A stretch of DNA of 64,000 bases from a virus. A program made the translations under genes and the position numbers. The notes beneath the pieces are model-generated. The model had not been told where the DNA came from. It ran no database searches and saw only the letters and a list, made by a program, of their open reading frames with translations. This document shows positions 10,593 to 35,212 of this stretch, piece by piece (the stretch's first letter is position 1; every line of letters begins with the position of its first letter). The stretch is from IMG/VR virus record IMGVR_UViG_3300025585_000039, positions 1 through 64,000 of that record, one strand, 5' to 3'.

Positions 10593-10593
10593 G

Positions 10594-12120: not shown

Positions 12121-12121
12121 A

Positions 12122-13071: not shown

Positions 13072-13085
13072 CCTAATATTATACA

Positions 13086-13355: not shown

Positions 13356-13384
13356 TAATATTATTATACCGCTAAATGTTAAGA

Positions 13385-13502
13385 GCCTCACACAGGTAAT
13401 TCAAGCACGATGGCCCGTTGGTCATATAGATAGGTAACTAATCCATCTCTAAGGTCCTGTGTGAGGCATACCAGGTATTTAGTGTCGCTGTCTCCCCCGA
13501 CA
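13385..13502 (-). ncRNA. candidate structured small RNA, unclassified
   Basis: own -10 (TACAAT 13508-13513); 5' hairpin TGTCG/CGACA; perfect 12-bp stem 13385-13396/13456-13467 enclosing further pairings. Confidence 0.5.
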
Positions 13503-13513
13503 TTTATATTGTA

Positions 13514-13918: not shown

Positions 13919-14009
13919 ATTTTTCTCCTTTTAAGCGAGTTAAATACCCCCCAATCTGGGCAGGTACTATAATTATAGCATGATATAATGGTAATGTCGA
14001 AAGGTAACT

Positions 14010-20679: not shown

Positions 20680-20756
20680 GATGGCCACTCCATATCATTT
20701 GGTCTTGTGATAATATCCCAGATCTTCGATAAAACCTTTTTAAGTTTTGTAATCAT
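20676..20756 (-). CDS. 26-aa micro-protein
   Basis: MITKLKKVLSKIWDIITRPNDMEWPS, ATGA-coupled on both sides. Confidence 0.5.
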   Translation of the reverse strand: MITKLKKVLSKIWDIITRPNDMEWPS

Positions 20757-21310
20757 GAGATATACCTATTAGGAATAATGTCTACCAATAAATGAATGCG
20801 ATGCAACGGACTCTTGTTAACCACAGAGTGAATCTTAGCATTATTTATTTCCCAACATTCTCCTTCTTTCATTGTAACTGTTTTTTCATCTACAGTAAAA
20901 AAGACATTCTGATTTGTTATGATTGGTATATGGTGTCTGCGAGAATGCATAAGGTAGTCACCACTATCACTATGTGGATGAATGTCTCCAAATCCTTTTA
21001 GTTTAATTAGAAGGCATTGTCCAACTTTACCATCATGTAATATCTCTAAATCCCTTACAATTGGATCAACAAGACTCATAATGTTGTCATCAAAACATAA
21101 TTGTTGACCTTGGTATGGCGTATTAATACCCCACCCCAAAGGGTGAGTATATAAAAAAAATGACTCTGTAAATCTGTGTGTATATTCGCTGCGCTGCCTG
21201 CTTGTATTAATTTGCCATTCTGAATTAAATTTTTCAACAATAGACCGCAATTGAGAAACGTCAAATTGTTTGTGCATTGTTATGCTAAATTCTTCGTCCC
21301 TCTTGTACAT
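20753..21310 (-). CDS. Asp/Asn beta-hydroxylase family 2OG oxygenase
   Basis: I.PHSD...RHHIPIITN...WEINN...HSV.N...RIHL.VD. Confidence 0.88.
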   Translation of the reverse strand: MYKRDEEFSITMHKQFDVSQLRSIVEKFNSEWQINTSRQRSEYTHRFTESFFLYTHPLGWGINTPYQGQQLCFDDNIMSLVDPIVRDLEILHDGKVGQCLLIKLKGFGDIHPHSDSGDYLMHSRRHHIPIITNQNVFFTVDEKTVTMKEGECWEINNAKIHSVVNKSPLHRIHLLVDIIPNRYIS

Positions 21311-21311
21311 T

Positions 21312-22073
21312 TTAGATACCTAACTCTTTTCGCTTTTGTGTGGCACTAATGGATTCAATTTCATCACCAAGTTTAACTTGTTCTATTTTATATCCAACGT
21401 CACGACCATAAACAATATTAGTAATGTTAGGTAATCTAAGAACCATTGATCCATCCATAAATGAATCTTTAGCAATATAATCTTTTACTTCATCAAACTT
21501 TAATGGATCTTTTTCGCTTGTTTTATATGTATTACGCACTCCCAGAAGTACCTGATCAGTTCTCTTACCTGCTTCTACATATAGAGCGTGATGACCCTCA
21601 TGCCATGGTTGATATCGCCCAAGCATAAGTGTTGTTGGTGCAGACCAATCATGCAAGCCAAATTCTTTAATTATTACGGATGCTTTATCATCTGCATCAA
21701 GAATGTGGCTTGGAAACGAGATGTCATATTGAGTTGGCTCTTCAAACATTTTATTTGTATCTTCAAAACGACTTTCCTTGATTGTTCTCATCCAAATAAG
21801 AATATCTGGCTTACCAAATGCTGCACGAGTTAAATCTGTTGGGCATACAAAGTCAACAATAACTGGAGCAACACCTTGCTTTGAAATAAGACGTGCCATC
21901 TCTCCCATGCGTCGTGCCTGTTCTAAACGATCCTCTGGCGTAAAGCCAAGATCTGAATTCACTGTTGCACGAACCTCATCTGCATTAAGATGAATAGCGT
22001 TAATACGTTCTTTTAATGCCTTCGCAAGTTCTGTTTTGCCAGAACCTGGCAATCCAATTATTTGAATAATCAT
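21312..22073 (-). CDS. adenylylsulfate kinase fused to an HxGH nucleotidyltransferase domain
   Basis: GLPGSGKT, NADEVR...DLGF..EDR; C-terminal GRYQPWHEGH...SAT..R. Confidence 0.85.
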   Translation of the reverse strand: MIIQIIGLPGSGKTELAKALKERINAIHLNADEVRATVNSDLGFTPEDRLEQARRMGEMARLISKQGVAPVIVDFVCPTDLTRAAFGKPDILIWMRTIKESRFEDTNKMFEEPTQYDISFPSHILDADDKASVIIKEFGLHDWSAPTTLMLGRYQPWHEGHHALYVEAGKRTDQVLLGVRNTYKTSEKDPLKFDEVKDYIAKDSFMDGSMVLRLPNITNIVYGRDVGYKIEQVKLGDEIESISATQKRKELGI

Positions 22074-22624: not shown

Positions 22625-22824
22625 TATTTTACCTTATTCCCAAATTTTGTCCAAAGTCTTTCATGCACAAAGTACAAAGCAGATTCCCAAAATAATTCCG
22701 CCAGAGCAGCAATACCAGCAATTTCCCATTCTCCTGTTAAAAGAAAAATTGTTCCTGCAACCATTGTCATGTGAACCAGTTGCCAAGTAACTGTTTTAAG
22801 TAGACTCTTTTTTGGTGTATCCAT
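22624..22824 (-). CDS. DUF2061 membrane protein
   Basis: SLLKTVTW...YFVHERLW. Confidence 0.8.
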   Translation of the reverse strand: MDTPKKSLLKTVTWQLVHMTMVAGTIFLLTGEWEIAGIAALAELFWESALYFVHERLWTKFGNKVK

Positions 22825-23606
22825 TACTTTACTCCCTTAATTCTTCTGTATGTTTCTTCATCTACAATACCATTTACTGGAAGACCTTCTTTTTTCTGAA
22901 AAGCCCTTACCGCTTTATCGGTAATTGGTCCAAACACACCTTCTGCTGGCTTAACACCAAGTGCTACTTGAACAACCTTAACTGAAGATCCCTTCGATCC
23001 TTGCTTAAATGGTTTAAATAATTTTACTTCTGGAACTTCGACACCTTGTGATTTAGCAACTTCAGCAAGTGCAACCTTCTTGTCTTCTAAAGGCATTGGT
23101 GCATCTGCATCTGGATAATCAACTACTCCGTATCCTGCAATGAATACTTGAAGACCTTTCTTGTTAGGACCGTATGCACGAAGTTTCTTTGCACACTCAC
23201 CACCATTTGACTGACTACCCTTCTTTCCATCAGCGGATGTATTTCCTTCAATACACCAAGCAGTTCCATCACCATTATCTTTCAATACCCAACCAACATG
23301 GTCAATGTCACGACCACCAGGGAAGTCAAAATAAACTACCCAACCTGGCTGTGGTTTGTTACCTTTAACAGGAACCCACTTGTTCATCTTTTTAAATGCT
23401 GCTACACCAGCAGGTGTATAAACTGTATTTGGAACTTTTACACCAGCCTGATTAGCGGACCAGTTAACAAACGATCCACACCATGGCAAGAAATTTGCCT
23501 TTGTGTATGCACCATATTTTGTTTCATTATCTTTTGGACCTTCTACGGTTCCAACTTCTTTTTGAATCACTTCAAGTAGAAGTGCTCTTGTACCTTTTTC
23601 TGCCAT
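22824..23606 (-). CDS. endolysin: CHAP amidase plus peptidoglycan-binding domain
   Basis: PWCGSFV, DHVG.V, IEGNT; C-terminal G.FGP.T..AV..FQ...GL...G.V. Confidence 0.9.
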   Translation of the reverse strand: MAEKGTRALLLEVIQKEVGTVEGPKDNETKYGAYTKANFLPWCGSFVNWSANQAGVKVPNTVYTPAGVAAFKKMNKWVPVKGNKPQPGWVVYFDFPGGRDIDHVGWVLKDNGDGTAWCIEGNTSADGKKGSQSNGGECAKKLRAYGPNKKGLQVFIAGYGVVDYPDADAPMPLEDKKVALAEVAKSQGVEVPEVKLFKPFKQGSKGSSVKVVQVALGVKPAEGVFGPITDKAVRAFQKKEGLPVNGIVDEETYRRIKGVK

Positions 23607-23620: not shown

Positions 23621-25045
23621 TTACCTGATAATTTTTGTATTATAGGTCTTTTCCCACTCTATTATATCACTCTCATCATTTAGTAGTGGTTGGCCTTTAA
23701 TATTTAAACTGGTATTTAATAATATAGGAACACCAGTTGCCTTATAAAATTTTTCTAAAACAGCATACAATCCAGGATGCTGTTCTTTAGTTACTGTCTG
23801 AACCCTAGATGTGCCATCAATATGCACCACAGAAGGTATTAAATCTGGCTTTAAACATCTTGGGGTATATTGCATATATGGGGATTCATACTTCATGTCA
23901 AACCATTCTGAGGCGTGTTCTGCCATTATTACGGGGGCAAAAGGTCTAAACAATTCACGCTTCTTAATAAGATTTACCTTGTCTTTAATATTTGGATCTC
24001 TTGGATCAGCAAGGATACTTCTATTTCCTAATGCCCTTGGACCAAACTCTGCTCTACCGCTTGCTACTGCAGCAATTTGATTTGTCATAATCTCATTAAA
24101 GATAGCATCAACTGGATACTTTCCTGGAATATTATATCCAAGATATGGTCCTTCCCATTTTACATGTTTTGCACGAAGAGCAAGGGCAGCACCCAAAGAA
24201 CTACCAGCATCTCCAGGATTTGGCATGATCCAAACGTCATCAAAAATATCCCAAAGCATTGTATTGGCTGAAGCATTTAATGCACAACCACCCATAAAAA
24301 CCAAATTCTTATATTCTGGTAATAGTTCTCCTCGAACCATTATCATAAACTCCCACAATCTTTCTTCATACACCTTTTGAACTGAAGCAGCAATATCAAA
24401 CTTATCTTGATCAGTCAAGATGTGGTATGGCCAATCTTTAATTCCTTGATGGTAATTATATTTTTGTGTTTTAATATCAGGGAAGTAGGACCAAACCTCT
24501 TTGTAATATGTGTCTGGATTTCCATACCCTGCCATACCCATTAGAATATATTCTTCTTGATTTGGCATTAAACCTATCAGTTGTGTAAATGCAGAATAGA
24601 ATAAACCGAAACTTAATGGATATTTTATTTCTTTAACAAGTTTGATATCCTCTCCATCTCCTACCCAAACAGTAGACGTAGAAAATTCTCCAATAGCATC
24701 TAAAACAACAATTGCTGCTTTGTCAAATGGACTTGTATAATATCCTGCACAAGCATGGGTGTAGTGATGCTTAAATGATATATCAAACTTATGTTTTGGC
24801 TTCCAATCTGCAGCACCACCACGTAAAACCAATCTTAACTTTTTAAGTCCAGGCTTTTCATAGTATGCAATTTCATCTGGAGTTCCTCCGTATCGCTCTG
24901 CATCTTTCCATAACTCATTATTGGTATACCAATCATTTTTAATCTTGCTATATCTTTCTGCGTGTCCAGCAAATAAAATAGAACTATTTTTAATTACAGC
25001 AAGTGCAGCATCGTGAGATGTCTCATTGAATCCAAATATTTTCAT
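23621..25045 (-). CDS. carbamoyltransferase (NodU/CmcH/TobZ family)
   Basis: SHDAA, HHYTHA, DAIGE, GGCALN, GDAG, EFGPRALGNRSILADPR, RPFAP, LNTSLN. Confidence 0.95.
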   Translation of the reverse strand: MKIFGFNETSHDAALAVIKNSSILFAGHAERYSKIKNDWYTNNELWKDAERYGGTPDEIAYYEKPGLKKLRLVLRGGAADWKPKHKFDISFKHHYTHACAGYYTSPFDKAAIVVLDAIGEFSTSTVWVGDGEDIKLVKEIKYPLSFGLFYSAFTQLIGLMPNQEEYILMGMAGYGNPDTYYKEVWSYFPDIKTQKYNYHQGIKDWPYHILTDQDKFDIAASVQKVYEERLWEFMIMVRGELLPEYKNLVFMGGCALNASANTMLWDIFDDVWIMPNPGDAGSSLGAALALRAKHVKWEGPYLGYNIPGKYPVDAIFNEIMTNQIAAVASGRAEFGPRALGNRSILADPRDPNIKDKVNLIKKRELFRPFAPVIMAEHASEWFDMKYESPYMQYTPRCLKPDLIPSVVHIDGTSRVQTVTKEQHPGLYAVLEKFYKATGVPILLNTSLNIKGQPLLNDESDIIEWEKTYNTKIIR

Positions 25046-25722
25046 TATTCTTGTCCAGTGGAATCTCTTTTAGCAGAAAGGGGAACATTGTGATACCAAT
25101 TTGGTAACGCATATCTTGGACCTTTTGTAACTGGATGAACTTCATGAACATACAAAAAGTTAGATGGGAAGAACAAAACGCTTCCTGGATCTGGTTTAAT
25201 TACAAGGTCTGAATGTCTAAACTCTATCTCTCCGCCCTCATAGTCATCATTGAGATAAAGCAATACAGATAAAACTCTTGTACTAATTCCTTGATCTTGA
25301 TGAGCAGGAAGGTGTCCAGTTTTTTCATACTTCAATAAATGCATTGTATGTTCTCTAGACTTAATGTTCTTTTCTGCAAATGGATATAAGTCTTTTGTAT
25401 AGTGATCAAGCGTTATATCTAATGCACCAAATAGTTCTGAAGAAATAAACTTTTGTTCTTCACCATATATATCATTTGCTGGAATGTCTTTGACTTGTGG
25501 AATAAACTTCTGCATGTTAAACGTCAGCATGCTTTCACCCTCGCCATATGTCCAAGGAACCCATGGCTTTACGGATGTTTGATTTGGTCCAGGCTTATCA
25601 GTAAGCCATCTATTCTCAAGTTCTTCAACAGCATCAATAATCTTTTGTGGTTCTTTAATTACATTTGTATAATAAACTAAACCAAGATCTAAAACTTCAT
25701 AATCAAACATGGTTAAGTCCAT
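25045..25722 (-). CDS. 2OG-Fe(II) oxygenase, prolyl-4-hydroxylase-like
   Basis: HQD...YLNDDYEGGE...FPSN..Y.HEV.PV..G.RY; start could be 25710. Confidence 0.9.
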   Translation of the reverse strand: MDLTMFDYEVLDLGLVYYTNVIKEPQKIIDAVEELENRWLTDKPGPNQTSVKPWVPWTYGEGESMLTFNMQKFIPQVKDIPANDIYGEEQKFISSELFGALDITLDHYTKDLYPFAEKNIKSREHTMHLLKYEKTGHLPAHQDQGISTRVLSVLLYLNDDYEGGEIEFRHSDLVIKPDPGSVLFFPSNFLYVHEVHPVTKGPRYALPNWYHNVPLSAKRDSTGQE

Positions 25723-26353
25723 ATTCTCTTGCAAGCCACTTTGGTCTTTGGCCTGGGAATAGGAACTCTGGATCTGCATTTTGTGGCAAACTAGTATGCA
25801 TATACAGTGCCGTATATCTATTGCCCTTAGTTACCGTTGTAATACCATGTACATATTCTGTTCCAGCACTTGGGAAAAATACCGCCGAATATTTCTTAGG
25901 AGCATAAACAACATTTTGGTTTGGAAAATAAATTCTTCCACCTTCAAAATCATCGTTAAGATACATAACGGTACTCCACTCAATCCATGGTTCTGGGCCT
26001 TGTGCATCAATGTGTAGGTCTCCCTTTTTACCTTCTGCCCACCAAGATCCAAACCCTTTGAATACATATATATCATGCATATACCCATTGAGTCTTCTGT
26101 GGTCTTCGTTTGCTTTCTGTCCATACTTAACAAGTACTTCCATAACTTGCTTGTTATAAGGAAGAGAAGTTCCTCCAAATCTTTTCTTATAATAATCTGG
26201 ATAATCATTAACCTCAGAAGGATTTTGCATTTCTCTAACTAAGAGATCTGCATCTTCTGGTGTAATGTAATTTTCTATAACATGAATTCTATGGCCATAG
26301 GTTTCTGGTCCGTGTGCCTCTAAATAGTTTTCTGGATTTGCTACTTCGATCAT
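25703..26353 (-). CDS. 2OG-Fe(II) oxygenase, prolyl-4-hydroxylase-like
   Basis: HID...YLNDDFEGG...HG...RY; SD GAGGAG. Confidence 0.9.
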   Translation of the reverse strand: MIEVANPENYLEAHGPETYGHRIHVIENYITPEDADLLVREMQNPSEVNDYPDYYKKRFGGTSLPYNKQVMEVLVKYGQKANEDHRRLNGYMHDIYVFKGFGSWWAEGKKGDLHIDAQGPEPWIEWSTVMYLNDDFEGGRIYFPNQNVVYAPKKYSAVFFPSAGTEYVHGITTVTKGNRYTALYMHTSLPQNADPEFLFPGQRPKWLAREYGLNHV

Positions 26354-26378
26354 TTTTTCTCCTCTTATTATTATACCA

Positions 26379-27248
26379 CTAGTGAACTGCTTTGGTGGTA
26401 GCAGTATATCTTCTAGCATCAATTTGATTAAAATTTAATTTTTCTGGATCATATTGAACATCATTAGTTTCAAATGGTAGTGGTTCTAAACTTTTGAAAT
26501 CAAAGTTGTGTCTTGTGCAGAAATCATCTACCGTTAAGTCCCTGCCAAGAATTGATCCACAGCAATTAATACCAGTCCTTAGCATTGTGATTGCTTCATT
26601 GTAATTATGATTTATTGAAAATGGTACGTACAGTGTTTCCATAGTTGGCTTACCAGCAAGAGTATAAAAATCTGTGGGCATTGCAAAAACTGGAATACCC
26701 CTTGTAAATAAATCTAGGGATAGGACTTCTTCCACACCATTATATTTTATATAACTTGGATAGTTAAGATTAGACATTGTTTTCTTATCACCAAATATTA
26801 GATCCCTATCAATAAAATCTGTTTGAACAATTTCAGAAGTTTCAATTTTTTCTTTTTGTATATAGAATACATTCTTTGCGGATATAGCAACTTGGTGATT
26901 ACCAGAAATTATCTGATTTGGCTTACACGCCTCAATTAGTTTTACATCCCAATCCTTAGACAACATAACATTGTCCGACAACAACATAAAATATTTTGAT
27001 TTGGACCACATTGCATTTGATGCTCTTAGGGCTGAATGATTTGTAATCCAATCCCAGAATAGGTGCTTATATCCAACACCCATTTTTTCAAAGGTATCTT
27101 TTCTATCTAGTGGATGTTGATCATATATACCTATACCAATTGAATGTTTCTTACTTGAATTATCTATAATCTGTTGAATAACATCTTTAAGATGTTTACC
27201 CTTATAAGAATAAATAAAAATATTTATGTCTACATTATTCATCGTCAT
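26379..27248 (-). CDS. GT-A fold glycosyltransferase-like protein (GT60/Skp1 GlcNAc-transferase-like)
   Basis: IFIYSYK...IGIYDQ...R...KYFM...WD..LI...EE..SL..FT.G pattern; DxH motif degenerate (SDN). Confidence 0.55.
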   Translation of the reverse strand: MTMNNVDINIFIYSYKGKHLKDVIQQIIDNSSKKHSIGIGIYDQHPLDRKDTFEKMGVGYKHLFWDWITNHSALRASNAMWSKSKYFMLLSDNVMLSKDWDVKLIEACKPNQIISGNHQVAISAKNVFYIQKEKIETSEIVQTDFIDRDLIFGDKKTMSNLNYPSYIKYNGVEEVLSLDLFTRGIPVFAMPTDFYTLAGKPTMETLYVPFSINHNYNEAITMLRTGINCCGSILGRDLTVDDFCTRHNFDFKSLEPLPFETNDVQYDPEKLNFNQIDARRYTATTKAVH

Positions 27249-28005
27249 GCTTGACTTCTTTCATCAATGCATTTTTGATACCATAAATCTTACGTCTCCA
27301 AGCAGTTTCTTTATAATAACCATATAGTCTGGATCTTCGATTCTCTGCCATAAACTCATGTCTTTCTAAATCTGAATCTTTTTCTGCTAATTCCATTTCC
27401 CAGTTTTCTCGTTTAAATGGTATCATTTGAAATATTGGTGTTCCCTTTGGAATTGTTCCAATGAAATTTTTCTTTAAAAAGAATGCGGTAAATACTGGTA
27501 GTCCCCAAATATCAGCCTCAACAACGCCAGACATTGTATAGAATGGAAGGTCGTGTCTATTCATTGGGTGGGTAATAAGAACAGAGTATCCAGGTGGTGT
27601 TTCATAATACCAGTTCATTCTCCATCCGTAATGGATTGGATGACACCCATCTGGCACTGGTAATTCAATCGTTGGTCTTTTATCAACCATCATTACTTCA
27701 CCATTCCAAGACACAATTGGCTTACCGTGCTTGGTTTGATCTACGTGAACATCATCTTCTAGGACATAGTGATATCCACCAGTCATGGCATCAAAGAATG
27801 GCATACACATTTTAGTAGCAACCATTGCTCCGTCTGCACCAATATTATTTTTTACACCAAGAGTAATATCATCATTTGACTTATCAAACTTTGCAAGACT
27901 TCTGTACCATTCAGGCACATTCTTTACCGCTGGCTCTGGTGGCGTAAGTCTATGCTCATAACCAGTAAAGGCTGGTGTAAATTTAATAATGTTAGGATCT
28001 GTCAC
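27235..28005 (-). CDS. conserved phage protein (DUF6065-like, dUTPase-like fold)
   Basis: P.WY...K.CMPF.DAMT.GY...TPPGYS.L..HP...KGTP..Q.IPFKRE.W. Confidence 0.6.
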   Translation of the reverse strand: MTDPNIIKFTPAFTGYEHRLTPPEPAVKNVPEWYRSLAKFDKSNDDITLGVKNNIGADGAMVATKMCMPFFDAMTGGYHYVLEDDVHVDQTKHGKPIVSWNGEVMMVDKRPTIELPVPDGCHPIHYGWRMNWYYETPPGYSVLITHPMNRHDLPFYTMSGVVEADIWGLPVFTAFFLKKNFIGTIPKGTPIFQMIPFKRENWEMELAEKDSDLERHEFMAENRRSRLYGYYKETAWRRKIYGIKNALMKEVKHDDE

Positions 28006-28724
28006 TTAAATTCTTTCTTTGCTCTATATTTATTTTTATAAGAGTGAACAAAATTACTTCTAAGTTTAAATCTTTGTTTTGTTAATTCTGCTGATGATTC
28101 AGAAGTTGGAACTAACTCCATCTTCCAATCTTCACGTTTAAATGGGATGACTTGAACAAGAGGTGTTCCTTGTTTAATTACACCCTTAAAATCTTTTTCA
28201 ATAAGAATAGATAGGTGACCATCTGTAATAAACTTATCTGTGTCAATGAATCCCTGTATTGCTAAGAAAGGTAAGTGATCTTTGTGCAAGGGATGCATGA
28301 AAAGTGTGCTATAACCTTCTGGTGTTTTAACTGCCCAGAATGGCATAACTCTAAACAATTGTTTGTGATACTTATTAGTATCGATTGGATAATGATCGTA
28401 TTGTTCTGGAGCATGTACAGCAAACATATCATTAACAAATTGCTTCATCGTCAACGGAACTGAGAACTCAATCTTTGCTGGGTTTGTTGCATCAATATAA
28501 ACATCGCATGGAAACGGAATGACATACCCTGCTGTCATAGCATCAAAAATTGGCATACAACGTTTAATAGTTGATGATAATTCTCCCTTTGGAAGGAACT
28601 CGTCATCCCTTACAGATGCTGGCTGTCTCTTATACCAGTCTGGTGTATTTTTGATTGCTGGTGTTGGTTCTGGTGCGAAAAATGTTGTTCTTTCGCTAAA
28701 CGGATAAAACCGAATGATGTTCAT
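28002..28724 (-). CDS. conserved phage protein (DUF6065-like), tandem paralog
   Basis: same motif set as 27235..28005. Confidence 0.6.
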   Translation of the reverse strand: MNIIRFYPFSERTTFFAPEPTPAIKNTPDWYKRQPASVRDDEFLPKGELSSTIKRCMPIFDAMTAGYVIPFPCDVYIDATNPAKIEFSVPLTMKQFVNDMFAVHAPEQYDHYPIDTNKYHKQLFRVMPFWAVKTPEGYSTLFMHPLHKDHLPFLAIQGFIDTDKFITDGHLSILIEKDFKGVIKQGTPLVQVIPFKREDWKMELVPTSESSAELTKQRFKLRSNFVHSYKNKYRAKKEFK

Positions 28725-29385
28725 AGAACTCCTTTACTCTATTAACAATTATATCATCTGCCTCAAAAACCATATCAAACATTGGCTGTTGTCTTTTAAT
28801 TTTGCCAAAATTCTCATTGATCATATGGGGTCCAACTTTTTTAAAGGCAAATGTAACAAATGCTGGCTCAATATATTTTTCATCGCCAGTGGTTTTTGTA
28901 TAACTATATTCTGTTGGATTAATATAGAATGGTGAGGCAGCGTCTGGTTTTTCAAACCTCACATTGATGTTTTCATCTATAAACCACGGAACATAAAACT
29001 TATAAAAAGAATTAAAACAATCATCTGTCAAATCAAAGGTTTCTTTGGTTTGATAGTATTGCCTTATCCATGGACGATCTAAATTAAAAAATGCCCTAGT
29101 GTGTTGTCTTACTAGCAAAAAGAATTCAGCATGATTTCCCTGCCTAAGTCTAACTGTATTGTTTTCAATCGATACAAGTTTTGGTGCTGGGTATAAATTC
29201 CTTACATAGTTGTTGATTGGCTTGATTATTGAGTCTTTATATTCACTCTGCATGACTTTAGAATATGTAATCCAATTTATATTTACCCTGGATTTTTCAC
29301 TAATATCAGAAAAAACTGGGTCCCATGTTTCTTGCCAAATATGAAAATTATATTTTTGATCTGTTAGGATTTCTGGTCCTTGCAT
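28696..29385 (-). CDS. hypothetical protein
   Basis: long ORF; promoter TGGTATAAT and leader GTCGAAAGG. Confidence 0.75.
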   Translation of the reverse strand: MQGPEILTDQKYNFHIWQETWDPVFSDISEKSRVNINWITYSKVMQSEYKDSIIKPINNYVRNLYPAPKLVSIENNTVRLRQGNHAEFFLLVRQHTRAFFNLDRPWIRQYYQTKETFDLTDDCFNSFYKFYVPWFIDENINVRFEKPDAASPFYINPTEYSYTKTTGDEKYIEPAFVTFAFKKVGPHMINENFGKIKRQQPMFDMVFEADDIIVNRVKEFYEHHSVLSV

Positions 29386-29428
29386 TACAAAACCTTTCGA
29401 CAACTCATTATACCAACACATTCATCAG

Positions 29429-29500
29429 AGCCTCCTGTAGGATTTGAACCTACGACAACTCGCTTACAAGGCGAGTACTCTACCCCTGAGTTAAGGAGGC
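29429..29500 (-). tRNA. tRNA-Thr(UGU)
   Basis: CTCGC-CTTGTAA-GCGAG; GGTTCAAATCC. Confidence 0.92.
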
Positions 29501-29501
29501 G

Positions 29502-29573
29502 TAGCCCTAGAGAGAATTGAACTCTCGTTTCCAGATTGAAAATCTGATGTCCTAACCACTAGACGATAGGGCC
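29502..29573 (-). tRNA. tRNA-Glu(UUC)
   Basis: TCAGA-TTTTCAA-TCTGG; GAGTTCAATTCTC. Confidence 0.9.
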
Positions 29574-29577
29574 TAAG

Positions 29578-29651
29578 CGATCCCGAACGGACTTGAACCG
29601 TCGACCTCTTCCGTGACAGGGAAGCGTTCTAACCAACTGAACTACGGGACC
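29578..29651 (-). tRNA. tRNA-Asp(GUC)
   Basis: CTTCC-CTGTCAC-GGAAG; GGTTCAAGTCC. Confidence 0.92.
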
Positions 29652-29655
29652 TCAG

Positions 29656-29726
29656 AGCGAATAGGGAGAATCGAACTCCCACCTTCTGCTTGGAAGGCAG
29701 AGGCACTACCATTATGCAACATTCGC
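29656..29726 (-). tRNA. tRNA-Gly(UCC)
   Basis: TCTGC-CTTCCAA-GCAGA; GAGTTCGATTCTC. Confidence 0.92.
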
Positions 29727-29727
29727 A

Positions 29728-29836
29728 GTGTCTAACTTTGTTGTTGCGTCCTAGTTAGACTTAGGCACAGAGGCAGTGCACTGCATGTGATGATGTGTGA
29801 CCGACACTTTCGTGTTACAGGGACAAACATACGCTA
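29728..29836 (-). ncRNA. candidate structured spacer RNA inside the tRNA cluster
   Basis: ACAC-GAAA-GTGT tetraloop hairpin; GTCTAACT/AGTTAGAC stem with possible pseudoknot. Confidence 0.35.
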
Positions 29837-29838
29837 TG

Positions 29839-29911
29839 CTGGTCTGGCAGGTCTCGATCCTGCGACATCTCGATTAACAGTCGAGTGTTCTACCAACTGA
29901 ACTACAGACCA
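29839..29911 (-). tRNA. tRNA-Asn(GUU)
   Basis: CTCGA-CTGTTAA-TCGAG; atypical T-loop ATCGAGA. Confidence 0.88.
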
Positions 29912-29918: not shown

Positions 29919-30683
29919 TTATGCTGCTGCTTTTACAATTTTAGATGTAACTGCATCAGATGACCACATTGCTGCAAGTGCTGCAGTGGCAGATGAAGAT
30001 GTATGTGCTACTAAGCCAATAGTAGTTGAATAACTAAACTTAGATCCATCATCAGAGATTTTTACAAAGTAATCTGTATCAGCATTAAACTGTCCAAGTG
30101 CACTTCCAACTTCATTGGCATGTACTACTGAAGCAGTATCTACAATGCATGCTGGATAGTTTACTGGCTTAGCCTTGTCATTGCCAGTAGATGCAAAAAC
30201 CAAAATACCTTTTTGCTTTAACACTGTAATAATTCTCTTAATTTCTTTATCTGCTGTATCTGGTGTCCATGGTGCAGATGCAATTGGCATACATGGTTTA
30301 GTTGCATGATTAAAATATCTTGAAAATGAGACAGCCTTTACCATAGATGCATTCTTTTCAACCCACTGCAAAGACGAGATAAATTGTGCTGGAGTCATTT
30401 CTGTTTTTGCATTTGCTCCACAAATTGCAATAATATTTAATGCTGGATTTTGCAATTTTGCAACAGCGTACATTGCTGTACCATGATTGTATGGGCTTGA
30501 TGCCAACGCACCAGAAATAGGTGCAGTTTGTGGACAAGATGTTCCAGATGGTGTAATTGGATTCAGTGCAACATTAGACTGAAAATAAGAATCAATAATG
30601 ACAAGAGACTTAGTATCTGCCTGTGCTTGAACTGGTACTACAACTGAAAATAGTATTGCTACTAGTGCTATGATTTTTTTCAT
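29919..30683 (-). CDS. secreted subtilisin-like (S8) peptidase
   Basis: signal peptide; IIDS, NHGT, STGND, TS.SAT catalytic-type motifs. Confidence 0.75.
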   Translation of the reverse strand: MKKIIALVAILFSVVVPVQAQADTKSLVIIDSYFQSNVALNPITPSGTSCPQTAPISGALASSPYNHGTAMYAVAKLQNPALNIIAICGANAKTEMTPAQFISSLQWVEKNASMVKAVSFSRYFNHATKPCMPIASAPWTPDTADKEIKRIITVLKQKGILVFASTGNDKAKPVNYPACIVDTASVVHANEVGSALGQFNADTDYFVKISDDGSKFSYSTTIGLVAHTSSSATAALAAMWSSDAVTSKIVKAAA

Positions 30684-30699
30684 TTTATTCCTTTTGCTC

Positions 30700-30906
30700 T
30701 TACGATATCATCAATCTGATGACATGACAACATGGGTCGCCTCCTGCTTCCCATTCTTCTAACTCTTCCTCACCCATATATTCGTATCCGCCATCGTGGG
30801 TATTGCAATATGGGGGTGTTACCCAACCACGATCAATACCATTAGAAAGCCAAATACCAAACTCTGTTTCCTCTGGAGATAAATCTTCTTCATGTGTGTG
30901 ATTCAT
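30700..30906 (-). CDS. small acidic protein
   Basis: CNTHDG...GGDPCCHV; leaderless start. Confidence 0.75.
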   Translation of the reverse strand: MNHTHEEDLSPEETEFGIWLSNGIDRGWVTPPYCNTHDGGYEYMGEEELEEWEAGGDPCCHVIRLMIS

Positions 30907-30919
30907 ACTATTAATTCTA

Positions 30920-32566
30920 CTACTTACCGTTCCACTTGTCAAGTTCTTTTTTGAGCATATCTAGCCCCATAGGACCTAATTTCAATGCGTACATATGCCA
31001 TTTTTTGAGATTAAAATTGTCACCTAATTTAGTTTTTGATTTTTCTCTGGCTTCGAGCCAAATACGCTCACCAAGTTTATAGGTGATTGCTTGTCCTGCC
31101 CAAGAAATATATCTTTTAACTTCATTAACAGCATAGTCATGTGTTAATAATGCTTGCTCTTCCATAAATTTTACAGCCAAGTCTGGTGTCCATGTTTCAC
31201 CATATGGACTTTCATATTCTAAGTGCAACCCAATATCAACAACTAACCTTGCTGCTCTCATTGCTTGGCAAAGTAAGTATCCCATTTTATATCCAGGATC
31301 TTCAAAATAGCCAAGTTCATCCATTAGTGTTTCTGCATATAAAGCCCATCCTTCACCATACCCAGAATTCCAAGCATCTTCTCTTTGATATCTTGTCAGT
31401 GTTTCTTTGTTGTATGTTGCAGTTGCAATTTGCATATGATGGCCAGGCACTGACTCATGGAACCATGTCGAATAATTTTCCCATGTTGTAAACTTTGTAC
31501 GTCCCAATGTTGGATAATATGTTCTTCCTGGTCTCTCTAAATCATCTGAAGGTCCTTTGTAATATGGAGATTCATCAATAGTATCTTCATCCATGATCAC
31601 TTCACATTTACGAATAACAGCAGGAATTGTAAAATACTCACCACTTAGATCCGCAATTGCTTGCTTAGTTATTTTATCTAAAAACTTTTTAAAATTATCT
31701 TTGCCCTCGATGGTGTAGTCTGGACTATTATTTAAAAAATTTGCAACCTCTGTCAAGGACTTGGCATCTGGTTTAATTTTTTTGGCAACATCCCACATCT
31801 GCTTATGAATATTTTCTAAATCTTTGAAGCCAGAAGCATATACCTTTTTAGGATTAATCATTAAACCAGTTTGAGACTTTACTAGTTTTATGTATCTTTC
31901 TTCACCCACAGCAAACTTATCTAAACAGGTAGGAAGGTATTTAAGTTCTAACCAAGTAGAGACTTGCTCACATGCGATCTGCGCTTCCTTTGCAGCCTTT
32001 AAAAGTCTTTTGTCAGCATCATCAATATCTTTGGCAATTTTAACAAACAAACCTTCTGCATAATTATTTAAAATATCAATCAAATATTCAACACGTAACT
32101 TAATTCCAGGCTGACCCAATGCTGATACGTCTTTCAGTGATGAGACCCATTGTGTAAGTGCCGTTGGAATTTTTTCCATACGCTTAATAATATTTAAAAC
32201 ATCTTTCCTTGTTTCTTTAGGCATGACCTCAAAAACTTCAAACATGGATTGTGGCTCTGAAAAAACTGAGCCGAAGTTTACATAGTTCCAATTGTCATCA
32301 GCATCTTCTATGTAATCATTAATATCAAACAAGATAACCTTTTTTGCAATCTCATCATAGCGATCAATTGGCTCTACCTCGCTGATTTGTTTGTAATATT
32401 TTTTTGCTATCTTTAAAAATGGGTCTACCTCATGGTAGGCATAGTCGTTCCAGTCTGAATTTTGGTCTGTATCATTGGCAAAGGTTGAAGCGATAGCATC
32501 ATATTCTAAAGACTTAAGGCTATATTCTTCAGACAGCCTAAAAATTTCTGATCGATGCCTTGCCAT
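30920..32566 (-). CDS. DUF885 family protein (putative metallopeptidase)
   Basis: HESVPGHHMQ, EGWALYAE, RAARLVVDIGLH, EV.RY...GQA.TYK.G. Confidence 0.9.
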   Translation of the reverse strand: MARHRSEIFRLSEEYSLKSLEYDAIASTFANDTDQNSDWNDYAYHEVDPFLKIAKKYYKQISEVEPIDRYDEIAKKVILFDINDYIEDADDNWNYVNFGSVFSEPQSMFEVFEVMPKETRKDVLNIIKRMEKIPTALTQWVSSLKDVSALGQPGIKLRVEYLIDILNNYAEGLFVKIAKDIDDADKRLLKAAKEAQIACEQVSTWLELKYLPTCLDKFAVGEERYIKLVKSQTGLMINPKKVYASGFKDLENIHKQMWDVAKKIKPDAKSLTEVANFLNNSPDYTIEGKDNFKKFLDKITKQAIADLSGEYFTIPAVIRKCEVIMDEDTIDESPYYKGPSDDLERPGRTYYPTLGRTKFTTWENYSTWFHESVPGHHMQIATATYNKETLTRYQREDAWNSGYGEGWALYAETLMDELGYFEDPGYKMGYLLCQAMRAARLVVDIGLHLEYESPYGETWTPDLAVKFMEEQALLTHDYAVNEVKRYISWAGQAITYKLGERIWLEAREKSKTKLGDNFNLKKWHMYALKLGPMGLDMLKKELDKWNGK

Positions 32567-32668
32567 TTTATCCTCTTTAGGTAGTAGTAAACCCCCCATT
32601 AAGGATGGGGCATACATATAGTATACCAGCCCTTAAGGGGGGTGTCAATTACCACTATTAATGATTAA

Positions 32669-33178: not shown

Positions 33179-35212
33179 TTACCTCCTCATACCAATAATC
33201 GTACTTGCAATTTGAGATACAATGACTACTGGGATTATTACCTCTTGTGCTTTTTCTCTCTGATCGTCTGTCATATCCATACCTAACTCAGAGAAATTAG
33301 ATAGGAGTTCTAGTGGGTCTACATTAAATAATGCACCAAGTGGATCTTCTAAAAATGCTTCTGCTTGTACCTCTGTAACAGCGTCTGCCAATGTAAATGG
33401 CATTGGGGTATCTCCAGCATCACTTGCTCTTGCTGAAAACTCAACAAATGCTTCTGCAAGTGCTGGATTAGATTTCATTTGATTTGCAATTTGTCCAATT
33501 TCTGATGTTTTAATACCAAGATCTTTTGCAACCTCAGCCTTTGCCTCTTGAGTTAAGGTTTGCAGTGTTTGGCTAACTGCTGCTATTTGTTCGGCAGAAA
33601 GTTTAACTAATTTATTATCTTTGCTTGTAAGGTTTGCAATAACTCCAGATAAATCTTCTGTTGTTCCAGTACCCTTTTCTGGAATAAGTGCTGCCAATTC
33701 TTCATCTTTTATTTCAGGATTAGTGGTTGGTTCGGTAGTTGGCTCTACTGTTGGTTCTGGGCCAGGTGTAGGCTCTGGAGTTGGATCTATTATAGGCTCT
33801 GTTGTAGGTTCTACCGTTGGCTCTGGAGTTGGCTCTGGGGTAGGATCAATTGTTGGTTCTGGATCTGGGGTAACTTCAGGTGTAGGTTCTGGGGTAGGTT
33901 CTGGAGAAACTTCTGGAGTAGGTTCAGGTGTTGGATCTACGATAATTGTTGGTTCTGGAGTAGGCTGATTTGCTGCTGCATTGGCTGCTGCTTGTGCAAT
34001 TGCAATTTGAATTTCTCTTTCTTTTTGTTTATTATAATATTCCCATGCATCTTCTATAGCATTATTCATATCTATTATTGCTTGATTGTAATTATCATTA
34101 GCAGTATTCTTATTAGATAATGCATTTTCTGTATTTGTAACAGAAGTATTATATGCTGTTATTTTTTCCTGTAAAGTTTGATTATATGTTGTTAGTGTAG
34201 AATTGGCACTATTATATGCAGTAACTTTATTATTATAATTTGTTTGTGCTGTTGCTTGATCTTCTACTGCTTGATTATATGCATTAGTCTGTGCCTGTGT
34301 TGGTCCAGAACCAGAAGAAAAAGTATTTAAATTGCAACTAAAACCTACACCCCAACCACCAGTATAGTCACATCCTGCTCCAGTCCATCCTCCAGGAATA
34401 GCCCATCCAAGATAATAAGATCCTGGACCACCACCGTTATACCACCAAATTTCTACATCTAATGTTTTATTTTGGCTAACATCATATACTGGTGAATAAG
34501 CACTCCATCTTGCTCCCTGTTCTACCCAGTTATCAATTGCTAATTGACCATTGACATACATTTTAAAACCATCGTCTGTATACCCTGCAAAATAAGTTGA
34601 AGTCCAATGAGATGGAACTGTAATCTTTCCAGTAAACTTAACTACTATATTTTCATATCTATTACCACAGACTGGCAGGTACATAGAATTTGAATTCCAG
34701 GTACCAGAACAAATAACAGAATCTGGTACTGCTATGCTTGGCCAAACCCTAGCAAGGTTATAAACTGTGTATTGAAGTCCTTGACCACTAGCAGATTGCA
34801 TATTTGCTTGGGTTGTTTGAACATTAATGTTTGCTAGATCTAGGGTATCTTGAGCAGCATTCTTTGCAGATAGTGCTGTTGCTACCGTTGAAGTTTGACC
34901 ATCAACTGCAGATTGTGCCAAAGTCTTTTCTTCAAGTGCAACCGCTTGAGCATTTACTGCATCTTCATAGGCTTGGTTTGCTGCATCTCTTGAGTCTCGT
35001 GCTGATACGGCAGCATCATATTTATTTTCTGCTATATCTATTAGGTTTACAAAATCAGTCTGATAGTTTAAGTCATCAACGCTGTTATTAAGTTTTGTTA
35101 TTTCTTGTGCAGCAACTGATATAGGGTCGTCTGAATTAGCGTCTGTAGGGGCTATTAAAAGCCATCCAAAGGCTAATATGGTGGCTGTTGCTATGCGTAT
35201 TAATCGTTTTAT
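33179..35212 (-). CDS. secreted PA14-domain, coiled-coil, Pro-rich surface protein (probable AUA start)
   Basis: frame open 97 codons upstream of the track start and encodes a signal peptide; PA14 motif TDDGF.MY.NG...W.EQ...WWYNGGG; PTPE repeats; C-terminal hydrophobic anchor. Confidence 0.8.
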   Translation of the reverse strand: MKRLIRIATATILAFGWLLIAPTDANSDDPISVAAQEITKLNNSVDDLNYQTDFVNLIDIAENKYDAAVSARDSRDAANQAYEDAVNAQAVALEEKTLAQSAVDGQTSTVATALSAKNAAQDTLDLANINVQTTQANMQSASGQGLQYTVYNLARVWPSIAVPDSVICSGTWNSNSMYLPVCGNRYENIVVKFTGKITVPSHWTSTYFAGYTDDGFKMYVNGQLAIDNWVEQGARWSAYSPVYDVSQNKTLDVEIWWYNGGGPGSYYLGWAIPGGWTGAGCDYTGGWGVGFSCNLNTFSSGSGPTQAQTNAYNQAVEDQATAQTNYNNKVTAYNSANSTLTTYNQTLQEKITAYNTSVTNTENALSNKNTANDNYNQAIIDMNNAIEDAWEYYNKQKEREIQIAIAQAAANAAANQPTPEPTIIVDPTPEPTPEVSPEPTPEPTPEVTPDPEPTIDPTPEPTPEPTVEPTTEPIIDPTPEPTPGPEPTVEPTTEPTTNPEIKDEELAALIPEKGTGTTEDLSGVIANLTSKDNKLVKLSAEQIAAVSQTLQTLTQEAKAEVAKDLGIKTSEIGQIANQMKSNPALAEAFVEFSARASDAGDTPMPFTLADAVTEVQAEAFLEDPLGALFNVDPLELLSNFSELGMDMTDDQREKAQEVIIPVVIVSQIASTIIGMRR
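33722..33966 (-). repeat. Pro/Thr/Glu linker repeats (PTPEPT)n
   Basis: many PTPE/PEPT units in the translation. Confidence 0.9.

Follow-up and report, generated by a model that had tools for sequence, protein, structure and literature searches.

A conserved phage gene cassette links dUTPase-fold paralogues to a GT60-like glycosyltransferase and prolyl hydroxylase-type oxygenases and may tailor a protein

Introduction

On what would a phage use two prolyl hydroxylase-type oxygenases, a glycosyltransferase (GT) and a carbamoyltransferase whose genes abut three further genes on one strand? This question is raised by a locus of an uncultured lake-type phage, analyzed here within a window of 64,000 nucleotides (positions 1 to 64,000 of IMG/VR record IMGVR_UViG_3300025585_000039). 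The 80-kb record of this phage is 74% complete; that of a relative, G004, is 92% complete. The initial annotation had proposed that a protein is hydroxylated, glycosylated, and carbamoylated by the products of these genes, with DNA hypermodification as the alternative.

Results

The interval from 23621 to 29421 is filled by seven ORFs on the minus strand, neighbours overlapping or being spaced by a few bases (Table 1), and no terminator-like site was found on that strand within the run. The seven abutting genes and their positions are confirmed as first annotated. The family calls made for them also hold, with corrections for the supposed DUF6065-like pair (g2 and g3), for the "unknown" g1, and for the GT, whose GT60 kinship is real but divergent. 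For g1, alignment with 28 homologues favors the ATG at 29385 over 29421 as the start; g5 probably starts at an ATG near 26353.

Table 1. Genes of the cassette and the proposed substrate gene in the window.
Feature	Position	Strand	Assignment
g1	28696..29385	-	229 aa; no Pfam/PHROG match; probably a remote paralogue of g2/g3
g2	28002..28724	-	dUTPase-fold protein, phrog_7084, paralogue of g3
g3	27235..28005	-	dUTPase/dCTP-deaminase fold, phrog_7084
g4	26379..27248	-	GT-A glycosyltransferase, divergent GT60 homologue (by sequence comparison)
g5	25703..26422	-	P4H-type 2OG/Fe(II) oxygenase, PF13640
g6	25045..25779	-	P4H-type 2OG/Fe(II) oxygenase, PF13640
g7	23621..25045	-	NodU/CmcH/TobZ-type carbamoyltransferase, PF02543 + PF16861
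PA14/(P-T/S-P-E)n-rich secreted protein	33179..35212	-	PA14, E 9e-7; candidate substrate of the initial annotation

Conservation was assessed in 65 IMG/VR loci carrying the GT, all on independent viral contigs. The g1–g3 trio and the oxygenase genes adjoin the GT gene in 61–64 of these, in the same order and on the same strand, which argues against a chance arrangement. Homologues of g1 are present in 61 loci, always next to g2 and g3, and g2 in 62. Co-occurrence across relatives, named as a check in the initial annotation, was therefore found. The carbamoyltransferase gene lies within 10 kb of the GT gene in 46/65 loci, in variable position, and in G004 and another relative, G011, it is located away from the GT, elsewhere in the genome; this gene is accessory to the cassette and movable. 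In G011, genes resembling g5, g6, and g7 lie in a tailoring island apart from g1–g4. The carbamoyltransferase and the oxygenase pair thus move independently, and the idea of seven genes forming one indivisible pathway had to be given up. In two divergent locus groups, the cassette lies within the structural region, with genes for Mtd_N, fn3, and "virion structural protein" products upstream and the portal gene downstream.

The trio is the part of the cassette most tightly tied to the GT, although the originally proposed pathway had assigned it no role. Both g2 and g3 match phrog_7084 (E 1e-48 and 7e-33, respectively), align over their full length with ∼30% identity, and share invariant K, C, D, H, D, and Q residues. 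Their match to DUF6065 is below the Pfam cut-off (18.4 versus 26.6 bits; 30 of 42 family members match weakly), and structure searches revealed a dUTPase/dCTP-deaminase fold instead. The AF2 model of g3, the best conserved cassette gene (53–79% identity), has a pLDDT of 79. In a wide VIA-align search, its best 22 matches were all chains of the dUTPase superfamily (Z up to 9.2, with 130 of 134 residues aligned), and the next, unrelated matches reached only Z 4.6 and 3.4; Foldseek searches of PDB and BFVD concurred.

The g2/g3 family has the fold of trimeric dUTPases and dCTP deaminases, and dUTPase motifs 2–4 fall in register, but it retains only the acidic pair of motif 3 and the Gln of motif 4, plus an invariant Cys (Cys67 of g3). 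Missing are the motif-1 Asp, the motif-2 Arg/Ser, the motif-4 Arg, and the C-terminal motif 5. The proteins are also ∼100 residues longer, and Pfam dUTPase does not match the family. Bacterial homologues are stand-alone and adjoin TPR genes, and the bacteria that have one also possess a normal dUTPase. For g1, Pfam and PHROG searches indeed gave no match. However, hhalign aligned its family with that of g2/g3 (E 1.6e-4, probability 50%, 77 C-terminal columns in register), which makes g1 probably a remote third paralogue, albeit one in which the acidic pair of motif 3, the Gln, and the Cys are missing. A dUTPase-fold protein with a conserved cysteine has also been described in linkage with tandem dioxygenases in Synechococcus phage Syn9 (Iyer, Abhiman, de Souza, Aravind 2010, PMC2938197), and, as far as this description allows comparison, g2 and g3 resemble it. 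The Syn9 array, however, comprises ten dioxygenases and halogenases with no GT reported (PMC2938197), whereas here a fixed trio of paralogues is bound to a GT60-like gene.

The likeness of g4 to GT60 noticed initially is one of homology, as judged by hhalign against canonical phage GT60 (PF11397) proteins (98.1%, E 1.3e-13). PF11397 itself scores 18.5 bits against a cut-off of 21 in g4 but matches 20 of 26 homologues. Sequence comparison thus identifies g4 as a true but divergent homologue of GT60. The AF2 model is a confident GT-A fold (pLDDT 86). Its top structural matches, the polypeptide O-GalNAc transferases GalNAc-T1 and TgGalNAc-T3 (Z 17.6 and 17.1), outscore the others by about 3 Z units (next, 14.7; VIA). 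Asp92 is invariant, but the His of the DxH motif is replaced by V, I, or C in 26 of 26 members, so the degeneracy first noted for the window protein is a property of the whole subfamily. Probably, g4 also lacks the second His that serves as a ligand in canonical GT60s. Donor and metal chemistry may therefore differ from those of GT60; the protein may have another chemistry or be non-catalytic.

Both oxygenases exceed the PF13640 cut-off of 27 bits (g5, 32; g6, 65.8), and their HxD...H triad and Arg (H160, D162, H212, and R222 in g6) are invariant across 35 sequences. By sequence, the best solved relatives of g5 are prolyl 3-hydroxylase 1 (P3H1) and the P4H of Bacillus anthracis; those of g6 are the B. 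anthracis P4H, lysyl hydroxylase LH3, P3H1, and PiuC. The original designation as prolyl-4-hydroxylase-like thus stands, with protein prolyl and lysyl hydroxylases as the nearest solved relatives. PF13640 enzymes also use non-protein substrates. The carbamoyltransferase g7 contains Carbam_trans_N (PF02543, E 1e-40) and Carbam_trans_C (PF16861, E 1e-53) and matches phrog_1601, "Nol-like carbamoyltransferase" (E 1e-101); at the DNA level, it is closest to nol genes of cyanophages. To our knowledge, all known substrates of characterized NodU/TobZ-type enzymes are sugars or small molecules.

Two kinds of protein are candidate substrates: the PTPE protein and the collagen-like, fibre-type proteins of related genomes. 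The former has 17 Pro within one 40-residue stretch, and only the window's lineage has homologues of it with Pro-rich tracts upstream of the cassette; near the cassettes of two other lineages, no Pro-rich neighbours were found. A collagen-like protein of ∼240 aa, with Pro and Lys in Y positions, is conserved among 5 of the 7 genomes compared, but was found neither in the 80 kb of this phage nor in G004. Canonical GT60 genes of relatives lie directly behind fibre-type genes: in G003 (PF11397, 136 bits) these are a Pro/Thr-rich gene of 707 aa and two collagen-like ones, and in G004 those of three large Ser/Thr-rich proteins. Other genes of the window specify a sulfotransferase, an APS kinase, an Asp/Asn beta-hydroxylase of the LpxO-type family, O-methyltransferase-like proteins, and two more PF13640 proteins. 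Iyer et al. predicted that co-encoded enzymes first hydroxylate and then sulfate collagen-like/tail-collar proteins (PMC2938197).

Discussion

From the observed gene order, folds, family homology, catalytic-residue conservation, and co-occurrence, we infer the chemical steps, a protein target, and a partner role for g1–g3: hydroxylation of a protein would be followed by glycosylation and, optionally, carbamoylation, with the dUTPase-fold trio as non-hydrolytic partners. We put the probability of this reading at roughly 45%. It is supported by the nearest solved relatives of g5 and g6 (bacterial P4H, P3H1, and LH3), by the GT60 homology of g4 together with its polypeptide O-GalNAc transferase-like fold, by the canonical GT60 genes behind fibre-type genes, by the cassettes amid virion genes in two divergent locus groups, by the conserved collagen-like protein and the Pro-rich secreted proteins that neighbour the cassette in the lineage of the window, and by the prediction of Iyer et al. 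together with the sulfotransferase, APS kinase, and additional hydroxylase genes of the window. By analogy only, since the folds differ, the crocagin pathway is a precedent for catalytically dead paralogues that hand a peptide to a 2OG dioxygenase before it is carbamoylated or glycosylated (PMC10070186). The loss of the phosphate- and Mg-binding motifs, and the normal dUTPase in homologue-bearing bacteria, suggest that g1–g3 are not hydrolases. The reading is weakened by the lack of the collagen-like protein in the 80 kb and in G004 and of Pro-rich neighbours in two lineages, by the missing DxH His of the GT, by the ribonucleotide reductase genes beside some g2/g3 homologues, by the signal peptides on the window's candidate substrates as opposed to the cytoplasmic enzymes, and by the non-protein substrates of PF13640 and NodU/TobZ-type enzymes. 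The interpretation in the initial annotation thus survives in part: GT60 homology, P4H relatives, and co-occurrence speak for it; the trio, the missing DxH His, and the separable genes do not fit.

Two known systems resemble the enzymatic core. In the Skp1 pathway of Dictyostelium and Toxoplasma (PhyA and Gnt1, GT60/PF11397), a cytoplasmic P4H-type 2OG oxygenase is likewise paired with a GT60-family GT-A enzyme. The cassette differs in its phage setting, its two oxygenases, the missing DxH His of g4, and the lack of a Skp1-like target, and nothing in the Skp1 pathway corresponds to the three dUTPase-fold proteins or the carbamoyltransferase. In collagen glycosylation (LH3 and ColGalT1; L230 and R699 of mimivirus, a viral precedent), a 2OG hydroxylase acts first and a GT-A enzyme then attaches sugar to the hydroxylated residue (hydroxylysine or hydroxyproline) of a collagen-like protein. 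Besides LH3 among the g6 relatives and collagen-like proteins in related genomes, LH3/ColGalT1 and R699 are among the structural matches of g4, but they are weaker than the GalNAc-Ts, and in the cassette each enzyme is a small protein of its own rather than part of a fusion.

Alternatively, the GT and carbamoyltransferase, with the sulfotransferases and methyltransferases, could decorate a polysaccharide or lipo-oligosaccharide of the host envelope during infection, which we consider unlikely. The "LPS genes" of cyanophage P-SSM2 and Nod-factor decoration (NodU, NodH, and NodPQ) are models for this. The Nol/NodU-like g7 with its cyanophage relatives, the established sugar substrates of NodU/TobZ enzymes, the sulfotransferase, APS kinase, O-methyltransferase-like, and LpxO-type genes of the window, and the G011 island are all consistent with it. 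However, glycan pathways contain nothing that corresponds to the combination of trio, GT, and P4H-type oxygenases. No match to a membrane-protein family and, by eye, no long hydrophobic stretch was seen in any of the seven proteins, and both the peptide transferase-like fold of g4 and the cassettes among virion genes count against this reading.

Less probable again is a small peptide- or nucleoside-derived, RiPP-like metabolite, with the trio as substrate-binding chaperones for the dioxygenases and subsequent decoration by the GT and carbamoyltransferase. The crocagin pathway (CgnB/CgnE, CgnC, and CgnI) offers the same logic: two non-catalytic paralogues guide a 2OG dioxygenase on a precursor peptide, after which a carbamoyl group is placed on the hydroxyl; related clusters encode a GT instead of the carbamoyltransferase (PMC10070186). 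Secondary-metabolite roles have also been proposed for phage dioxygenase arrays with a dUTPase-fold protein (PMC2938197). One metagenomic protein carries a dUTPase-fold domain fused to a P4H-like region, and another has two copies of the domain. Yet the crocagin binders have an aminopeptidase T-like fold, not that of dUTPases, and belong to bacterial secondary metabolism, so that the precedent is one of analogy, not homology. The fusion is known from one contig of 2 kb, and hhalign gave no significant match for its C-terminal domain (E 0.1). Within the cassette, neither a gene for a short precursor peptide nor one for a protease or an exporter was identified.

Least probable is nucleotide or DNA-base hypermodification, in which the trio would bind or reshape pyrimidine nucleotides, the oxygenases hydroxylate the base as JBP/TET enzymes do, the GT glycosylate it, and the carbamoyltransferase cap it. 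Base J and the glycosylation of 5hmC in phages indeed follow this hydroxylase-plus-GT scheme (PMC8256090). The fold of g3 with its retained nucleoside-side motifs would fit, as would the fact that no canonical dUTPase was found in the record or in five near-complete relatives. A ribonucleotide reductase gene adjoins g2/g3 homologues in haloarchaeal viruses (Hafunaviridae), in cyanophage S-RIM4, and in one lineage of these phages, where a class II enzyme is inserted into the cassette (L052-type loci); this hints at nucleotides instead of a protein target. In the window's lineage, however, it is tens of kb away. The P4H-type oxygenases are not of TET/JBP grade (g6 scores only 19.6 bits with Tet_JBP, cut-off 34.9), no ThyA/ThyX-like hydroxymethylase or C5-methyltransferase was found in the 80-kb record, and neither ThyA nor ThyX in the five relatives. 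With these usual partner genes not found, the phosphate- and Mg-binding motifs gone, a GT nearest to polypeptide transferases, and bacterial homologues that stand alone by TPR genes alongside a true dUTPase, the DNA alternative of the initial annotation is disfavored.

If, as we tentatively favor, a protein is the target, the cassette, widely conserved yet separable, would constitute a soluble, cytoplasmic tailoring set. In it, g5 and g6 would hydroxylate Pro, possibly Lys, side chains of a phage-encoded protein, and g4 would add a sugar to the new hydroxyl or to Ser/Thr; g7, where present, would O-carbamoylate the sugar or a hydroxyl. The three dUTPase-fold proteins, possibly as a heterotrimer, would work together with the GT and the oxygenases by binding either the substrate or the uridine moiety of the sugar donor.

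Conservation and arrangement of the cassette

Between positions 23621 and 29421, seven minus-strand ORFs abut or overlap (see table), and no terminator-like site was found on their strand within the run. The gene order proposed in the initial annotation was right: an unknown gene (g1), two paralogues (g2 and g3; phrog_7084), a glycosyltransferase (GT; g4), two PF13640 oxygenases (g5 and g6), and a carbamoyltransferase (g7). The start chosen for g1 (29385) is backed by an alignment of its homologues. The observation itself, a seven-gene cassette, was confirmed; its interpretation as one pathway that hydroxylates, glycosylates, and carbamoylates a protein held in part. Hydroxylation and glycosylation of a protein are still favored, but the label DUF6065 and the notion of a single inseparable unit had to be given up, and the likeness of the GT to GT60 is that of a divergent homologue.

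The window covers the first 64 kb of an IMG/VR viral contig of 80,003 bp, whose completeness is put at 74%; GC content is ∼36%, and there are eight tRNA genes. The large terminase shares 82–86% identity with the terminases of uncultured 100–120-kb phages and 56% with the enzymes of ∼130-kb Streptomyces siphoviruses. The cassette was not found in any cultured phage. One contig with a homologue (L069; g3 71% identical) was binned in a Flavobacterium MAG; the other bins with homologues were Actinomycetota or Acidimicrobiaceae.

A single-sequence scan of viral contigs with the GT returned nothing; a profile scan of IMG/VR yielded 65 loci with a g4 homologue. Adjoining it on the same strand, tblastn detected g1 at 61 of these loci, g2 at 62, g3 at 63, g5 at 64, and g6 at 62, missing members being mostly accounted for by contig ends; the proposed co-occurrence across relatives was, for these five genes, borne out. 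Three arrangements were distinguished, the first being that of the window. The second (L050/L054 group of loci) reads g2-g1-g3, an extra 214-aa gene, GT, two oxygenases, SDR, LamG protein, and portal. The third (L052/L062 group), with Mtd_N and fn3 fiber-type genes upstream, reads g1-g2-g3, two extra genes of ∼220 aa, GT, class II ribonucleotide reductase, one oxygenase, a 1,250-aa protein, and portal. When the unknown 214–226-aa genes of divergent loci were searched with HMMs of the g1 and g2/g3 families, no more copies of the trio (g1–g3) were found.

The carbamoyltransferase lies ≤10 kb from the GT at 46 of the 65 loci, in variable position (after g6, between g5 and g6, or beyond one to three inserted genes). 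Whole-genome comparison located it in all six other genomes examined, distant from the cassette in the related phage genomes G004 and G011. In the latter genome, the genes most similar to g5, g6, and g7 (68–73% identity) sit together at 40–41 kb, by a methyltransferase and other tailoring genes, and g1–g4 are found at 82–86 kb. The unit that stays constant is accordingly the trio with the GT; the oxygenase pair and the carbamoyltransferase accompany it but can be placed elsewhere. The region of G011 that holds these g5–g7 homologues is equivalent to window positions 9142–14711, a second tailoring island with two PF13640 oxygenases and two Methyltransf_24 genes.

Coordinates of the cassette, neighboring genes, and candidate target proteins (window numbering unless indicated)
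Feature	Position	Strand	Remarks
g1, trio	28696-29385	−	
g2, trio	28002-28724	−	
g3, trio	27235-28005	−	
g4, GT	26379-27248	−	
g5, 2OG oxygenase	25703-26422	−	
g6, 2OG oxygenase	25045-25779	−	
g7, carbamoyltransferase	23621-25045	−	
Cobalamin adenosyltransferase	1418-1987	+	PF01923, E 6e-52
Sulfotransferase	6498-7154		
Methyltransf_24	9142-9891	−	
PF13640 oxygenase, additional	9927-10592		
Methyltransf_24	11285-11962		
PF13640 oxygenase, additional	14010-14711		
Asp/Asn β-hydroxylase-family protein; directly downstream, 253-aa APS-kinase protein	20753-22073	−	PF05118, E 7e-14; APS kinase in N-terminal part of the latter, PF01583, E 1e-14
CHAP + PG_binding_1 endolysin	22824-23606		14 nt downstream of cassette
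Five-tRNA array	29428-29911		upstream of cassette
Secreted subtilisin-like (S8-like) protein, 254 aa (29919-30683)	within 29919-32617	−	signal peptide
DUF885 protein, 565 aa	within 29919-32617	−	E 2e-116; between terminase region and tRNA array
PA14 protein, Pro-rich	33179-35212		upstream of cassette
Giant ORF, 2,391 aa	61005-68177 of the 80-kb record (G000)	−	poly-Gly run; extends beyond window end
Giant ORF within window, 984 aa	61002-63956		from internal ATG; frame open to window end
Fiber-type block, G003	L139:3536-10648; collagen-like protein of ∼240 aa at 5112-5837, Pro/Thr-rich protein at 7298-9418		
Fiber-type block, G011	L140:5065-9350		

Predicted dUTPase fold of the g2/g3 family

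The two paralogues had been labeled DUF6065-like. Against PF19541 (DUF6065), g3 scored 18.4 bits (cut-off 26.6), its match to EutQ/cupin being equally weak, and g2 gave no DUF6065 match in Pfam. Weak DUF6065 matches were obtained for 30 of 42 g2/g3 relatives (best E 2.1e-5). The pair is kin to PF19541 but lies outside the curated family, and a literature search found no paper mentioning DUF6065. The fold is rather that of dUTPases and dCTP deaminases. An AlphaFold2 model of g3 (pLDDT 79), built from an alignment of 42 g2/g3-type sequences, has the trimeric dUTPase/dCTP deaminase jelly-roll, and its top Foldseek matches in the PDB were solely members of these two groups. VIA-align, an independent search of 48,161 chains, placed dUTPase superfamily members in the first 22 consecutive positions (Z 5.4–9.2; alignments spanning as many as 130 of 134 target residues), ahead of matches with Z of 4.6 and 3.4. 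In BFVD, uncharacterised phage proteins came first, followed by dozens of viral dUTPases. A cupin or EutQ identity of g2/g3 was rejected (cupin chains Z ≤3.0, compared with 9.2 for dUTPases).

PDB sequences searched with the g2/g3 family profile gave no match, and Pfam dUTPase matched 3 of the 42 members, with no E below 0.055. Comparison with four bacterial dUTPases (hhalign) was not significant (E 0.14), yet in motif register: the blocks H-P-x-N, G-x-V-D/E-x-D, and G-T-P-x-x-Q-x-I fall, in a single hhalign alignment, on dUTPase motifs 2, 3, and 4. Just the acidic pair of motif 3 and the Gln of motif 4 are kept from the five catalytic motifs; the motif-1 Asp, motif-2 R/S, motif-4 Arg, and the P-loop-like motif 5, involved in Mg and phosphate binding, are missing from the family. 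A Lys-x-Cys pair is invariant. We infer that g2 and g3 derive from dUTPases and are unlikely to hydrolyze triphosphates. The g1 family matched the C-terminal core of the g2/g3 family remotely (hhalign E 1.6e-4, probability 50%) and g1 has neither the motif-3 acids nor the motif-4 Gln nor the Cys; as far as can be judged from these alignments, g1 is probably a third, degenerate paralogue.

The g2/g3 family is very large (5,310 cluster representatives at E ≤1e-3 in public data), and none of these representatives bears a functional name. Two metagenomic proteins have composite architectures, one (P0167) with two copies of the dUTPase-fold domain in one chain, the other (P0166) with this domain joined to a C-terminal region containing an HxD motif. 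The C-terminal half of P0166 lies near P4H-named clusters in a language-model protein atlas (0.92–0.94). Because neither Pfam nor hhalign (E 0.1) supports this half as a P4H, a fusion of dUTPase fold and P4H is to be regarded as a lead only.

A divergent GT60 homologue

The 28 homologues of g4 are all metagenomic. Neither tblastn of g4 against 50,697 phage records nor a search of PDB sequences with its family profile produced a match. The AlphaFold2 model (pLDDT 86) has a GT-A fold related to the GT27 polypeptide transferases: VIA matched it to GalNAc-T1 (Z 17.6, 243 residues aligned) and TgGalNAc-T3 (Z 17.1), followed at 14.7 by the next match and, lower in the list, by LH3/ColGalT1 (13.4), TarP, and mimivirus R699 (12.9); Foldseek agreed. 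The earlier comparison of g4 with GT60 stands with regard to GT-A fold and profile homology, but the DxH motif is missing and the window's protein, at 18.5 bits, stays under the cut-off (21) of PF11397 (CAZy GT60). That g4 is homologous to GT60, as a divergent subfamily, is supported through its relatives: 20 of 26 close homologues match PF11397 (best E 2.4e-7), and profile–profile comparison of the family with four canonical GT60 proteins of related phage genomes, three of which were scanned and scored 55 to 136 bits on PF11397, gave 98.1% probability (E 1.3e-13, 240 columns).

In the alignment with canonical GT60, the W-D and E-E blocks recognized in the initial annotation are conserved. DxH (D-S-H in the canonical phage proteins) is D92-N-V in g4, the His being replaced by V, I, or C in 26 of 26 members; the caveat that DxH is degenerate therefore applies to the whole subfamily. 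Judged by its sequence, g4 is homologous to GT60 yet lacks one of the features that define the family. No literature linking Gnt1 or Skp1 with bacteriophage was found.

Oxygenases, carbamoyltransferase, and further tailoring genes

Both g5 (32.0 bits) and g6 (65.8 bits) pass the cut-off (27) of PF13640, the P4H-type 2OG/Fe(II) oxygenases, and the HxD…H triad and basic 2OG-binding residue (H160, D162, H212, and R222 in g6) are invariant in 35 g5/g6-type sequences, in agreement with their description as P4H-like. Among solved sequences, those closest to g5 and g6 are Bacillus anthracis P4H, prolyl 3-hydroxylase 1, lysyl hydroxylase LH3, and PiuC, the likeness to solved protein hydroxylases being restricted to the DSBH core. 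Records of these phages contain 2–7 PF13640 genes (5–7 in the three most complete). The naming of g7 as a NodU/TobZ carbamoyltransferase was sound, both domains of the family being present: Kae1-like at the N terminus (PF02543, 140.5 bits) and YrdC-like at the C terminus (PF16861, 181.9 bits). Where TobZ has the HHxxH metal motif, g7 reads K-H-H-Y-T-H.

Iyer et al (2010; PMC2938197) predicted that collagen-like and tail-collar proteins are hydroxylated, then sulfated, by co-encoded enzymes; the window, too, encodes a sulfotransferase, an APS kinase, and an Asp/Asn β-hydroxylase, which suggests that the tailoring repertoire includes a sulfation branch. Cyanophage 2OG oxygenases and carbamoyltransferases have been listed without role or substrate (Sullivan et al, 2010; PMC3037559). 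The cobalamin adenosyltransferase is consistent with the class II (B12-dependent) ribonucleotide reductases detected in all five related genomes searched.

Candidate target proteins

In the window's lineage, Pro-rich (P-T/S/E)n proteins are encoded upstream of the cassette, among them the PA14 protein that had been proposed as substrate; none lies within 10 kb of the cassette in the second and third arrangements. The subtilisin-like protein carries an N-terminal Pro/Thr-rich tract in some relatives. A collagen-like protein of ∼240 aa, with 13–15 G-X-Y triplets (Pro and Lys at Y) and a Pfam Collagen match, is conserved in four window-type relatives and in G011 (seven genomes scanned); it is absent from the 80 kb of this phage, a record 74% complete, and from G004. 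G011 and another related genome, G003, share a fiber-type block: two collagen-like proteins (506 and 242 aa), three small genes, and one Pro-rich protein (707 aa and Pro/Thr-rich in G003; in G011, 469 aa and carrying a PASTA domain). In G003, the conserved ∼240-aa protein belongs to this block, and directly behind the block comes a canonical GT60 (136 bits on PF11397). The Pro-rich and collagen-like proteins are candidates only. The giant poly-Gly ORF probably encodes a tail or fiber protein.

Predicted function

We consider it most plausible, at a probability of about 0.45, that the cassette serves protein modification: a protein would be hydroxylated, then glycosylated, and optionally carbamoylated, the dUTPase-fold proteins acting as partners of the tailoring enzymes. 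In its predicted chemistry, the cassette would be a variant of known hydroxylase–glycosyltransferase systems. A more specific version, which we regard as possible but doubtful, is that the dUTPase-fold proteins form a new non-hydrolytic partner class, in which a g1:g2:g3 heterotrimer would present a protein or uridine-linked substrate to the 2OG oxygenases and the GT60-like transferase devoid of a metal site. Crocagin biosynthesis (PMC10070186) provides a mechanistic analogy, not homology; CgnB and CgnE were excluded as homologues of the trio by their aminopeptidase fold (PMC10070186).

Among the alternatives, tailoring of a glycan ranks first, although improbable, and tailoring of a metabolite second. 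Modification of nucleotides or DNA is, by a narrow margin, the least probable, despite the dUTPase fold of the trio, the lack of a canonical dUTPase, and the proximity of ribonucleotide reductase genes in the third arrangement and to the single-copy g2/g3 homologues of haloarchaeal myoviruses (Hafunaviridae; Halorubrum virus VOLN27B, L002) and the T4-like cyanophage S-RIM4 (L068; weak match). The halovirus homologue is equally near tail genes, and the trio has lost the phosphate-binding motifs. Bacteria with a g2/g3 homologue retain a normal dUTPase; in Bradyrhizobium (L078) and Rhodobacterales (L082), the chromosomal copy stands alone (around 8000–9500), convergent with a TPR-repeat gene, a context that gives no functional clue. 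Neither oxygenase belongs to the TET/JBP type (g6 19.6 bits on Tet_JBP, far under the cut-off of 34.9; g5 no match), and no ThyA, ThyX, or C5-methylase was found: PF00145 (C5-methyltransferase) and PF00303 (ThyA) are absent from the 80-kb record, itself 74% complete, and PF00303 and PF02511 from five relatives that are 92–100% complete. The cassette thus differs from TET/JBP (5mYOX) plus GT systems in missing both their Tet_JBP-type dioxygenase and their source of 5mC/5hm-pyrimidine; in two papers on phage TET and T-dioxygenases, the word “carbamoyl” is absent. A dUTPase-fold protein with a conserved cysteine also occurs in the dioxygenase array of Syn9 (Iyer et al, 2010; PMC2938197).

Because the cassette is compact and conserved and its proteins appear soluble, it could be reconstituted in E. 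coli. Few unexplained “auxiliary” genes of aquatic phages are as common as those for 2OG/Fe(II) oxygenases and Nol-like carbamoyltransferases; the cassette joins two oxygenases of this kind to a glycosyltransferase of polypeptide type and a very large, uncharacterised dUTPase-shaped family. Should it act on nucleotides, it would represent a new hypermodification route. If fiber or secreted proteins are decorated, the dUTPase fold would have a new, non-nucleotide role, and phages would offer an instance of hydroxylation-dependent protein glycosylation, none of which was found reported in a narrow literature search. If the dUTPase-fold proteins are indeed a partner class, the abundant and enigmatic 2OG-Fe(II) oxygenase genes of phages would be decorators of virion or secreted phage proteins.
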